Assembly (NCBI RefSeq): GCF_054482595.1
Contig: NZ_CM137008.1
Direction: 5' to 3' (one strand)
DNA: 64,000 nt
Positions 2,206-5,069 of this stretch are shown here, in pieces. The notes below the pieces were generated by a model that saw only the letters and a program-made list of their open reading frames with translations, had not been told where the DNA came from and made no database searches. The translations under genes were made by a program, and so were the position numbers. How positions within the stretch are numbered: the stretch's first letter is position 1; each line of letters begins with the position of its first letter.

Positions 2206-2254
2206 GACGCAAGCAGCGTCTGCAAAACTTTTAGAATCAACGAGAGGATTCACC

Positions 2255-3418
2255 ATGTCTGTAATTAAGATGACCGATCTGGATCTTGCTGGGAAACGTG
2301 TATTTATCCGTGCGGATCTGAACGTACCAGTAAAAGACGGGAAAGTAACCAGCGACGCGCGTATCCGTGCTTCTCTGCCGACCATCGAACTGGCCCTGAA
2401 ACAAGGCGCAAAAGTGATGGTAACTTCCCACCTGGGTCGTCCTACCGAAGGCGAGTACAACGAAGAATTCTCTCTTCTGCCGGTTGTTAACTACCTGAAA
2501 GACAAACTGTCTAACCCGGTTCGTCTGGTTAAAGATTACCTCGACGGCGTTGACGTTGCTGAAGGTGAACTGGTTGTTCTGGAAAACGTTCGCTTCAACA
2601 AAGGCGAGAAGAAAGACGACGAAACCCTGTCCAAAAAATACGCTGCACTGTGTGACGTGTTCGTAATGGACGCATTCGGTACTGCTCACCGCGCGCAGGC
2701 TTCTACTCACGGTATCGGTAAATTCGCTGACGTTGCGTGCGCAGGCCCGCTGCTGGCAGCTGAACTGGACGCGCTGGGTAAAGCACTGAAAGAACCTGCT
2801 CGCCCGATGGTGGCTATCGTTGGTGGTTCTAAAGTATCTACCAAACTGACCGTTCTGGACTCCCTGTCTAAAATCGCTGACCAGCTGATTGTTGGTGGTG
2901 GTATCGCTAACACCTTTATCGCGGCACAAGGCCACGATGTGGGTAAATCCCTGTACGAAGCTGACCTGGTTGACGAAGCAAAACGTCTGCTGACCACCTG
3001 CAACATCCCGGTTCCGTCTGATGTTCGCGTAGCAACCGAGTTCTCTGAAACCGCTCCGGCTACCCTGAAATCTGTTAACGACGTGAAAGCTGACGAGCAG
3101 ATCCTGGATATCGGTGATGCTTCCGCTCAGGAACTGGCTGAAATCCTGAAGAATGCGAAAACCATTCTGTGGAACGGTCCGGTTGGCGTGTTCGAATTCC
3201 CGAACTTCCGCAAAGGTACTGAAATCGTGGCTAACGCTATCGCAGACAGCGAAGCGTTCTCCATCGCTGGCGGCGGCGACACTCTGGCAGCAATCGACCT
3301 GTTCGGCATTGCTGACAAAATCTCCTACATCTCCACTGGCGGCGGCGCATTCCTCGAATTCGTGGAAGGTAAAGTACTGCCTGCAGTAGCGATGCTCGAA
3401 GAGCGCGCTAAGAAGTAA
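2255..3418 (+). CDS. pgk: phosphoglycerate kinase
   Basis: ORF 2192..3418 trimmed to ATG 2255 ([25 protein letters not shown]); 387 aa. Confidence 0.95.
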
Positions 3419-3427
3419 AAAATCACA

Positions 3428-3452
3428 GGGCAGGGAAACCTGCCCTTGTTTC
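3428..3452 (+). terminator. putative intrinsic terminator after pgk (GNRA-looped hairpin gggcagg-gaaa-cctgccc followed by TTGTTTC)
   Basis: 7-bp perfect stem with tetraloop directly after pgk stop, U-rich tail. Confidence 0.5.
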
Positions 3453-3632
3453 AGCGCGCTTTTAGAGCACGCATTTTTTCATACTCTAAATAATTCGAGT
3501 TGCAGGAAGGCGACAAGAGAGTGAATCCCCAGGAGCTTACATAAGTAAGTGACTGGGGTGAGCGAACGCAGACGCAGCACATGCAACTTGAAGTATGACG
3601 AGTATAAGGCCCGACGATACAGGACAAGAGAC

Positions 3633-4712
3633 ATGTCTAAGATTTTTGATTTCGTAAAACCTGGCGTAATCACTGGTGATGACGTACAGAAAGTTTTCCA
3701 GGTAGCAAAAGAAAACAACTTCGCACTGCCAGCAGTAAACTGCGTCGGTACTGACTCCATCAACGCCGTACTGGAAACCGCTGCTAAAGTTAAAGCGCCG
3801 GTTATCGTTCAGTTCTCCAACGGTGGTGCTTCCTTTATCGCTGGTAAAGGCGTGAAATCTGACGTTCCGCAGGGTGCTGCTATCCTGGGCGCGATCTCTG
3901 GTGCGCATCACGTTCACCAGATGGCTGAACATTATGGTGTTCCGGTTATCCTGCACACTGACCACTGCGCGAAGAAACTGCTGCCGTGGATCGACGGTCT
4001 GCTGGACGCGGGTGAAAAACACTTCGCTGCTACCGGCAAGCCGCTGTTCTCTTCTCACATGATCGACCTGTCTGAAGAATCTCTGCAAGAGAACATCGAA
4101 ATCTGCTCTAAATACCTGGAGCGCATGTCCAAAATCGGCATGACTCTGGAAATCGAACTGGGTTGCACCGGTGGTGAAGAAGACGGCGTGGACAACAGTC
4201 ACATGGACGCTTCTGCACTGTACACCCAGCCGGAAGACGTTGATTACGCATACACCGAGCTGAGCAAAATCAGCCCGCGTTTCACCATCGCAGCGTCCTT
4301 CGGTAACGTACACGGTGTTTACAAGCCGGGTAACGTAGTTCTGACTCCGACCATCCTGCGTGATTCTCAGGAATATGTTTCTAAGAAACACAACCTGCCG
4401 CACAACAGCCTGAACTTCGTATTCCACGGTGGTTCCGGTTCTACTGCTCAGGAAATCAAAGACTCCGTAAGCTACGGCGTAGTGAAAATGAACATCGATA
4501 CCGATACCCAATGGGCAACCTGGGAAGGCGTTCTGAACTACTACAAAGCGAACGAAGCTTATCTGCAGGGTCAGCTGGGTAACCCGAAAGGCGAAGATCA
4601 GCCGAACAAGAAATACTACGATCCGCGCGTATGGCTGCGTGCCGGTCAGACTTCGATGATCGCTCGTCTGGAAAAAGCATTCCAGGAACTGAACGCGATC
4701 GACGTTCTGTAA
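3633..4712 (+). CDS. fbaA: fructose-bisphosphate aldolase class II
   Basis: ORF 3549..4712 trimmed to ATG 3633 (MSKIFDFVKPGVITGDDVQKVF); 359 aa. Confidence 0.95.
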   Translation: MSKIFDFVKPGVITGDDVQKVFQVAKENNFALPAVNCVGTDSINAVLETAAKVKAPVIVQFSNGGASFIAGKGVKSDVPQGAAILGAISGAHHVHQMAEHYGVPVILHTDHCAKKLLPWIDGLLDAGEKHFAATGKPLFSSHMIDLSEESLQENIEICSKYLERMSKIGMTLEIELGCTGGEEDGVDNSHMDASALYTQPEDVDYAYTELSKISPRFTIAASFGNVHGVYKPGNVVLTPTILRDSQEYVSKKHNLPHNSLNFVFHGGSGSTAQEIKDSVSYGVVKMNIDTDTQWATWEGVLNYYKANEAYLQGQLGNPKGEDQPNKKYYDPRVWLRAGQTSMIARLEKAFQELNAIDVL

Positions 4713-4736: not shown

Positions 4737-4760
4737 GGCCCGCTCTGCGGGTCTTTTTTT
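4737..4760 (+). terminator. intrinsic terminator after fbaA (cccgc-tct-gcggg + T7)
   Basis: GC stem-loop followed by run of seven T. Confidence 0.7.
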
Positions 4761-4776
4761 CGCCAAAAGAAAAATT

Positions 4777-4804
4777 GCCTGATGCGCTACGCTTATCAGG
4801 CCTA
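4777..4804. repeat. REP-type palindromic element (gcctgatgcgctacgcttatcaggc)
   Basis: Imperfect palindrome with GCCTGATG...CATCAGGC arms typical of enterobacterial REP. Confidence 0.7.
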
Positions 4805-4840
4805 CACGTATCCTGCAATATATTGAATTCGCAGGTTTTT

Positions 4841-4877
4841 GTAGGCCGGATAAGGCGTTCACGCCGCATCCGGCATG
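4841..4877. repeat. REP-type palindromic element (gtaggccggataaggcgttcacgccgcatccggcatg), forms a BIME with the preceding REP
   Basis: Canonical GCCGGATAAGGCG...CGCCGCATCCGGC REP palindrome. Confidence 0.75.
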
Positions 4878-4905
4878 ACAAAGCGCACATTGATATCTGT
4901 CTGAG

Positions 4906-4927
4906 CCCCGCTCTGCGGGGATTTTTT
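4906..4927 (+). terminator. second terminator-like hairpin (ccccg-ctct-gcgggg + T6), near-duplicate of the fbaA terminator
   Basis: Hairpin plus T-run; about 30 bp identical to 4739-4769. Confidence 0.55.
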
Positions 4928-5069
4928 CGCCAAAAGCAAGGTGATACAGATGAGAAATCTGTGATCTATTTGGCAAAATTATGCTTTATTGTTTACCCTT
5001 GTCAGACTGCCCGTCATAAGGCGGCGGAGTGTATTTCTCCATTTTGAGTCAGTTGAAAAGGAATATTGA

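Follow-up and report, generated by a model that had tools for sequence, protein, structure and literature searches.

Organisation of the fbaA-mscS spacer

The window analysed here, a 64 kb stretch of Escherichia coli DNA, has the gene order pgk, fbaA, mscS, argO, yggE. The ORF list and the RefSeq annotation of identical DNA placed fbaA, which encodes a class II fructose-bisphosphate aldolase and belongs to the upstream transcription unit, at 3633 bp–4712 bp (+). The downstream gene, mscS, was placed by the same two sources at 5070 bp–5930 bp (+), leaving a spacer of 357 nucleotides. Strain XH990 was 100% identical to the window across a 561-nucleotide query around the spacer, and look-ups with FbaA returned E. 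coli only. The spacer arrangement found in the window is referred to below as the long allele.

The spacer contained two copies of the fbaA terminator, at the coordinates and with the sequences given by the original prediction. Copy 1 was AGGCCCGCTCTGCGGGTCTTTTTTTCGCCAAAAG at 4736 bp–4769 bp and copy 2 was AGCCCCGCTCTGCGGGGA-TTTTTTCGCCAAAAG at 4904 bp–4936 bp; a repeat search recovered them as two direct-repeat blocks with spacings of 168 bp and 167 bp. Combining the repeat search with a terminator scan and folding, copy 1 (4735 bp–4769 bp, +), the left direct repeat, was resolved into a hairpin (4735 bp–4755 bp), a U-tract (4756 bp–4762 bp) and a tail, CGCCAAAAG, extending to 4769 bp. Copy 2 (4904 bp–4936 bp, +), the right direct repeat, was resolved in the same way into a hairpin (4906 bp–4920 bp), a single A, a U-tract (4922 bp–4927 bp) and the CGCCAAAAG tail. 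The predicted fold of copy 1 had a free energy of −14.1 kcal/mol, a 9 bp stem and a U7 tract, and that of copy 2 had −11.6 kcal/mol, a 6 bp stem and an A followed by U6. Both copies had the sequence features of an intrinsic terminator in the terminator scan, namely a GC-rich hairpin and a U-tract 3′ of a gene, and two consecutive terminators between fbaA and mscS are predicted at the level of sequence. A literature search on fbaA, mscS and terminator together returned no match.

Alignment of the two copies showed that they differ at three positions and by one T, and that through two of these changes a G.U pair becomes C-G. The base following copy 1 is C in most long alleles, including that of K-12, so that in these alleles the repeat extends to ...CGCCAAAAGCAA. 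The 13-nucleotide hairpin core CCCGCTCTGCGGG occurred twice in the 64 kb (0.06 expected), as did the 15-nucleotide tail TTTTTTCGCCAAAAG (0.01 expected), and in neither case were two matches obtained in any of 100 shuffles, which ruled out chance similarity of the copies. In one E. coli long allele (GCA_031444745.1) copy 2 was CCCCGCTCTGCGGGGCTTTTTTT, whose C and extra T match both E. albertii and copy 1; this hints at either an ancestral state or conversion between the copies. Window position 4946, 10 nucleotides past copy 2, had three alleles (the window carries A, K-12 and O157 carry T, and CH4796, ST131 and SCU-171 carry G), and the states of this site occurred with both long alleles and those lacking the second copy.

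A block 5′ of mscS, TGTGATCTATTTGGCA...TTGTTTACCCTT (4969 bp–5003 bp of the window), was conserved from E. coli to Citrobacter, Kluyvera, Enterobacter and Pluralibacter and lies just downstream of copy 2. It contains TGTGA-N6-TGGCA, which resembles a CRP-type half-site pair. Additionally, some E. coli, among them CH4796, TUM13867 and one further genome (L100), encoded an MscS variant of 291 amino acids, downstream of which a convergent TRAP-transporter (DctP family) gene replaces argO, a different downstream context on a long-allele background.

A BIME-1 element between the terminator copies

The two REP palindromes that had been proposed to lie between the copies were both recovered with the published palindromic unit (PU) pattern. 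A Y-type unit was found at 4774 bp–4806 bp (+) with no mismatches, and a Z1-type unit, inverted relative to the Y unit, at 4840 bp–4877 bp (−) with two mismatches. Both units align base for base with the BIME-1 copies at entD-fepA and mog-satP, and it is on alignment with these paralogues, not on a consensus, that the Z1 (not Z2) assignment rests. Between the units lies the L linker core TGCAATATATTGAATTCGCA (4814 bp–4833 bp, +), which was invariant in paralogous BIME-1 copies. On the reverse strand of the linker, ATTCAATATATTG is one mismatch from the IHF consensus, WATCAANNNNTTR, and is a candidate IHF site. BIME-1 L linkers frequently carry an IHF site (PMC3333891). To the right of the Z1 unit, outside the palindrome, alignment to paralogues identified a BIME-1 right arm, GACAAAGCGCACATTGATATCTGTCTGAG (4878 bp–4905 bp, +), as a diverged copy of the family end ...GAACAAAGCGCACTTTGTCAACAATCTGA. 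A longer terminator duplication reaching back to the fbaA stop codon (CATT...TCTG...TCT) was rejected, as the stretch before copy 2 is this right arm and is common to the paralogous copies.

From its sequence, the block between the terminators is a BIME-1 (also RIP or RIB), with a Y unit, an L linker carrying the candidate IHF site, a Z1 unit and arms that match those of the family in part. Published BIME-1 architecture comprises a Y and a Z1 unit with a long conserved linker, present as a single copy (PMC3333891), and the fbaA element agrees with the BIME-1/RIP/RIB description in having one Y and one inverted Z1 unit, a long conserved L linker, a single copy and an extragenic position at the 3′-end of a transcription unit. 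It consists of one Y-L-Z unit with no tandem array, lying between the fbaA stop codon (4712 bp) and the mscS start (5070 bp). The sole other REP in the 64 kb window was a lone Y-type unit at 34,882 bp–34,921 bp (−). Rfam family ES036/CssrF matched 4798 bp–4840 bp (−) with a score of 42.5 bits (gathering score 37.6), and this sRNA family may in effect describe the BIME-1 linker repeat.

The entD-fepA and mog-satP alignment gave a family unit of about 150 bp that reads ...AGACTGATGACAAACGCAAAAC, Y unit, linker with TGCAATATATTGAATTNGCA, Z1 unit, CATGAACAAAGCGCACTTTGTCAACAATCT.... The family-specific outer arms read ...AGACTGATGACAAACGCAAAAC on the left and ...GAACAAAGCGCACTTTGTCAACAATCT on the right, and the arm tips read AGAYTGNTGACAAA. 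The arms are inverted repeats to their tips: the left arm and the reverse complement of the right shared 43–45 identical positions of 55/65 at three canonical loci and 39 at fbaA. The right arm at fbaA is present but diverged, and in the left arm the match to the family starts at about motif position 11, the terminator tail taking the place of the outer part.

In E. coli TUM13867 (NZ_AP025657.1) an IS1397-family, IS3-like element was inserted in the loop of the Z1 unit (spacer positions about 2220–3640, equivalent to about 4862 in the Z1 unit of the window) with a 3 bp TTC duplication. Bachellier et al. are said to have associated IS1397 with BIMEs in 1997, and the TUM13867 insertion fits this. 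Approximately 60 of 5,425 genomes covered <80% of a 224-nucleotide query made from the allele lacking the block, and these may carry IS1397-like insertions.

Long and short alleles in E. coli

At least 80% of the 561-nucleotide long-allele query was covered in 3,719 of 5,426 complete E. coli genomes. The sampled remainder carried a version of 394 (or 391) nucleotides, 167 bp shorter than the query, which is referred to as the short allele. It was found in approximately 30% of the 5,426 genomes and in about 18 of 60 evenly spaced genomes. The short allele reads ...AAGGCCCGCTCTGCGGGTCTTTTTTTCGCCAAAAG|CAAGGTGATA..., with a single terminator and no palindromic unit, and its terminator has exactly the copy-1 form, joined to the sequence 3′ of copy 2. 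Allele alignments showed that the presence/absence unit (4770 bp–4936 bp, unstranded) is the BIME-1 plus one copy of the repeat, with boundaries that can slide within the repeat. Long alleles were encoded by K-12, O157:H7, O104:H4 and O111:H8, and short alleles by ST131, ST95, E2348/69 and ECONIH strains, being frequent in B2 lineages. The 136-nucleotide insert had its best match in short-allele genomes at a paralogous locus (positions 2–123 or 2–126, 88–93% identity).

The original prediction held that the REP block had inserted with duplication of the terminator, or that recombination between repeats had copied it. Insertion with duplication is supported by the alleles, since E. coli genomes without the block are exactly 167 bp shorter and have one terminator, and an alignment of the spacer across enterobacteria likewise gave one terminator copy in genomes without the block. 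Recombination between the repeats does not account for the origin of the block, and is instead the likely cause of its secondary loss in approximately 30% of E. coli. The two repeats make the 167 bp unit precisely deletable, by slippage or recombination between the copies, which would leave precise empty alleles and is the most likely source of the single-terminator allele. A chimeric short allele, with the left half of copy 1 and the right half of copy 2, was absent from 5,425 E. coli genomes, in which the best match was 98.7%. Recurrent deletions, if they occurred, must therefore without exception have been resolved in the last 15-nucleotide identical block.

Outgroups, age and polarity

The spacers of Citrobacter, Kluyvera, Enterobacter, Pluralibacter, Phytobacter and Superficieibacter had a single terminator and no palindromic unit, and these non-Escherichia outgroups were collinear with the short allele as far as the conserved block upstream of mscS. 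E. albertii encoded the long allele with an identical spacer length of 357 nucleotides, and three further E. albertii contigs agreed. Copy 1 differed by one base between E. coli and E. albertii and copy 2 by several, so that copy 2 has evolved faster than copy 1. E. albertii copy 2 shared GGGG with E. coli copy 2 at a position where copy 1 has GGGT. The presence of the long allele in E. albertii indicates that the insertion is old, and the shared copy-2-specific GGGG indicates that the duplication predates the separation of the two species. The contig scan for outgroups returned E. albertii and did not return E. fergusonii, E. marmotae or Salmonella, a search with the E. albertii sequence found no cryptic-clade genome in the E. 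coli collection, and a protein search with MscS gave E. coli variants alone. E. albertii (contig L110, 2398 bp–3327 bp, −; also L111) had an extra gene of 309 amino acids between mscS and argO, with no Pfam hit, which was absent from E. coli.

At least three flanking haplotypes carried the short allele in some genomes and the long allele in others; one of the markers, a TC/AT dinucleotide, lies only about 50 bp away from the indel. In a local fbaA and mscS tree rooted on E. albertii, short alleles fell into two clades. Both results are consistent with recurrent loss of the block. The most economical reading is that the block inserted long ago and was probably lost since then by one or more precise deletions between the repeats, the polarity of the short allele resting on one close outgroup (E. 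albertii) and a shallow, weakly resolved local tree.

The reverse polarity, in which the short single-terminator allele is ancestral in E. coli and the long allele came by horizontal transfer and homologous recombination into E. coli or E. albertii, was judged unlikely. Under it the polymorphism would be a gain and not a loss, and the duplication would still have arisen with BIME-1 insertion, in another lineage. It draws on the collinearity of the short allele with all non-Escherichia outgroups, on the frequency of the short allele in B2 lineages, which are early-branching in E. coli, and on the pure copy-1 form of every short allele, with no chimeras. Transfer of the long allele is also favoured by the divergence of the element, which differs by about 5% between E. 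coli and E. albertii where mscS differs by 11%. Against this, the long alleles of the two species share their junctions, their length and the copy-2-specific substitution and differ at several other positions, as vertical descent predicts. Also against the reverse polarity are the several flanking haplotypes, down to the nearby dinucleotide, on which both alleles occur, and the local tree, where one short-allele group was sister to a long allele. We retain old insertion and later deletion in what follows.

Flanking repeats across the BIME-1 family

The BIME-1 copy at mog-satP was also found to have similar hairpins on both sides, and other BIME-1 loci were therefore sampled for flanking repeats. 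One metagenome scan with the linker motif was clustered into about 25–27 distinct loci. For loci with both arms complete, 45–55 nucleotides outside the left tip were compared with those outside the right tip, all mismatched pairs of left-i and right-j flanks serving as controls. In a first pass, six of 16 loci, including fbaA (score 40), scored above all 240 mismatched controls. A wider re-scan placed six of 17 complete loci above all 272 mismatched controls, the control maximum being 19: L215 (50), chbG-katE (30), metE-ysgA (30), rutG-ymdF (29), srmB-yfiE (25) and mog-satP (23). The lpdA-yacH flanks scored 18, a value equalled or exceeded by 1.5% of controls. fbaA lacks the left tip, and for this reason alone it was omitted from the re-scan set.

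What the two flanks shared was, in every case, a locus-specific GC-rich hairpin. Recognisable flank repeats were present at approximately 40% of the complete loci, and the others had a hairpin on one side or none. Since a palindromic unit reads alike in both directions, direct and inverted copies are indistinguishable at most loci; fbaA is the clearest direct-repeat case. On these flank comparisons, terminator duplication appears to characterise BIME-1 as a family.

Empty and filled alleles at other loci

Five loci were found with both alleles: fbaA-mscS, metE-ysgA, rutG-ymdF, srmB-yfiE and lpdA-yacH. At the last four, the palindrome found on either side of the element at filled sites was present exactly once in the empty allele. 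The filled order was palindrome, 1–3 bases, element, 1–3 bases, palindrome. rutG-ymdF was filled in 1,734 of 5,426 genomes (174 bp longer when filled, duplicated unit of 23 nucleotides), srmB-yfiE in 2,525 of 5,426 (176 bp longer, 23–24 nucleotides) and lpdA-yacH in 494 of 5,426 (21 nucleotides). The filled metE-ysgA allele, about 170 bp longer with a duplicated unit of 19–21 nucleotides, was present in none of the 5,426 genomes and occurred only in a lineage of about 93% identity, which favours insertion as the direction of change there.

The duplicated unit at these four loci was the whole stem-loop. Duplication lengths were about 19–24 bp at the four loci, 27 bp at L215 and 31 bp–34 bp at fbaA, and so were not fixed; they varied with palindrome size in the target. 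The four canonical sites have no duplicated U-tract: the element follows the upstream copy, and the U-tract stays with the downstream copy. The U-tract lay to the right of the element, with the element in the same orientation, at at least four of the five loci. With the upstream copy lacking a U-tract, the transcript should extend across the element and terminate at the second copy, and this predicted read-through matches the known location of BIME-1 in 3′ UTRs.

At chbG-katE a shorter allele was rejected as an empty site, since it is a replacement by unrelated sequence (E. coli M8; L240 compared with L152), and this spacer has had a more complex history. The rhlE-ybiA and cysM-yfeS loci, which have BIME-1 without flank repeats, had no simple empty allele in E. 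coli and are hence silent on hairpin-less targets.

These loci bear on two other explanations of the repeats. The terminator might first have been duplicated in tandem, by slippage or unequal crossing-over, with BIME-1 later landing between the copies. Tandem terminators do occur, and E. coli commonly has small segments with direct repeats at their borders (PMC2884548). However, no spacer with two terminator copies and no BIME-1 was present among the sampled E. coli genomes and outgroups, and the bracketed architecture at no fewer than six other BIME-1 loci, each with a different palindrome and with one-copy empty alleles, would require a repeated coincidence. We regard prior tandem duplication as the least probable of the explanations considered. 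Hardly more probable is that the flank similarity is convergent or selected, paired GC-rich hairpins being kept for mRNA 3′-end protection or bidirectional termination. The retention of hairpin potential by both fbaA copies despite their divergence would fit such selection, as would paired stem-preserving changes, the G.U to C-G change at fbaA and that from CCAGG/CCTGG to CCGGG/CCCGA at srmB-yfiE. The sharing nevertheless extends to loops and non-pairing tails (TTTTTTCGCCAAAAG at fbaA, the 27-nucleotide unit at L215), and the empty alleles hold that locus-specific sequence exactly once. Selection may explain why both hairpins were retained, not how they originated.

Insertion of BIME-1 with duplication of its target is the reading that we prefer. 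We consider it likely that a BIME-1 inserted at the Rho-independent terminator of fbaA before E. coli and E. albertii split, duplicating the terminator, and that such duplication is a trait of the BIME-1 family. From the sequences compared, family-wide duplication of the palindrome is well supported as a description, and its mechanism is one that we infer.

The fbaA site compared with canonical sites

The fbaA copy differed from other BIME-1 copies in its missing outer left arm and its unusually long duplication, which includes the U-tract. The repeat runs through the U-tract and CGCCAAAAG(CAA), 9–12 bases past the U-tract and 31 bp–34 bp in total, and the element is without the outer 14–20 nucleotides of the left arm. 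The total gain at fbaA, 167 bp, is close to the 174 bp–176 bp at canonical sites, and the stretch now in place of the outer arm is nearly equal in length to what it replaces (24 and 23 nucleotides). Additionally, CGCCAAAAGCAAAA resembles the arm sequence TGACAAACGCAAAA.

The left junction could be read in two ways. It could reflect a non-canonical insertion with a wider stagger, or a canonical insertion followed by a conversion that copied the sequence after copy 2 onto copy 1, in which case the conversion tract would end in the CGCCAAAAGCAAAA/TGACAAACGCAAAA microhomology. Under either reading the sequence of copy 1 at fbaA is that of a complete terminator, unlike the upstream copy at canonical sites. 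Copy 1 is predicted to be a complete, strong terminator with the BIME-1 lying past it, outside the fbaA 3′ UTR, and copy 2 is predicted to be a backup terminator ahead of the mscS promoter. Among polymorphic BIME-1 sites fbaA-mscS is ordinary except for its tandem terminators, an unusual outcome.

Proposed mechanism and comparison with known systems

Duplication of a whole palindrome would follow most simply if the two strands were cut on opposite sides of it, such as at the base of a hairpin or cruciform that has been extruded, the element were joined in, and gap repair then copied the entire palindrome. Were the cuts made by a hairpin-recognising enzyme acting on a cruciform or on single-strand hairpins, the stagger would track palindrome length. 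Insertion into the hairpin loop was rejected because each flank has a complete hairpin, not half a stem. A more tentative proposal, to which we give somewhat less than even chances, is that BIME-1 and REPINs integrate specifically at the palindromes of Rho-independent terminators, opposite-side strand cuts duplicating the whole palindrome.

A similar outcome is known from spacer integration by Cas1-Cas2, in which a partly palindromic repeat (about 28 bp) is attacked in staggered fashion on its two sides and gap repair then leaves two flanking repeats, IHF assisting in E. coli. The comparison is an analogy only. BIME-1 targets are dispersed terminators and not a CRISPR array, and nothing points to Cas proteins taking part.

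The REP-associated Y1 transposase TnpA(REP) would be the obvious candidate enzyme. It binds REP hairpins and cuts at CT dinucleotides (PMC3333891), and CT was present at both BIME-1 tips. BIME-1 also resembles the units of the REPIN/RAYT TnpA(REP) system in consisting of two inverted REPs plus flanks as one unit. The IS200/IS605-type Y1 transposases, relatives of TnpA(REP) that transpose as single strands, make no target duplications (PMC2817692), whereas BIME-1 is bracketed by a duplicated palindrome of 19 bp–34 bp, and the assignment to TnpA(REP) is weak for this reason. Ton-Hoang et al. found that strains without tnpA(REP) all fall in the B2 clade, and a preprint describes a fall in REPIN numbers after RAYT loss; the frequency of the short fbaA allele in B2 lineages may be connected with this. 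In REPINs, two inverted REPs and their flanks form a long hairpin that is thought to be the mobile unit, and excision and loss have been documented (PMC3116915; PMC3333891), with the mechanism of movement stated to be unknown (PMC3116915).

REPs have been reviewed as lacking the signatures of MITEs (PMC3184786). In common with MITEs, BIME-1 is non-autonomous, about 150 bp long, has inverted-repeat arms that reach its tips, and is flanked by a direct target duplication with one-copy empty sites. In contrast to typical MITE duplications, which are short and of fixed length, that of BIME-1 tracks the palindrome (19 bp–34 bp), and its target is a structured terminator hairpin. The flank duplication and one-copy empty sites across loci make BIME-1 look MITE-like, with an insertion that duplicates the whole terminator palindrome (19 bp–34 bp).

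Presence and absence of whole BIME-1 copies among isolates has been documented, as summarised in later accounts (Bachellier 1997, as cited in PMC1187871; PMC3333891). Touzain et al. (2010) reported that about 10% of small variable E. coli segments are flanked by repeats, some with deletion variants and with palindromic unit loci included (PMC2884548); they treat the repeats as deletion substrates and draw no link to BIME-1 insertion or to terminators. No description of a duplicated terminator palindrome at BIME-1 borders was found in the literature outside the primary BIME, RIB and RIP papers of 1991–1997.

Implications

Two tandem terminators and an element with a putative IHF site separate a very highly expressed glycolytic operon from mscS in about 70% of E. 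coli, and a single terminator does so in about 30%. The long and short alleles of fbaA-mscS form a natural allele pair for studies of insulation against read-through, and by itself the locus is of modest interest.

How REP, BIME and REPIN sequences move has been an open question for decades, and a reproducible footprint makes it accessible to test. Such a footprint is given here by a terminator palindrome as the target, by duplication of that palindrome in full and by a single copy at empty sites. It predicts the structures that would be cut by the REP-associated transposase or another nuclease, and the sites of new insertions. If the interpretation is correct, BIME-1 would duplicate its target under the direction of DNA structure and over a variable length, as no bacterial transposase described so far does, and this would be the first concrete footprint of the spread of REPs and BIMEs. 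It would also explain why BIME-1 is found in 3′ UTRs, since at canonical sites the upstream hairpin loses its U-tract and the element would be transcribed into the 3′-end of the mRNA.
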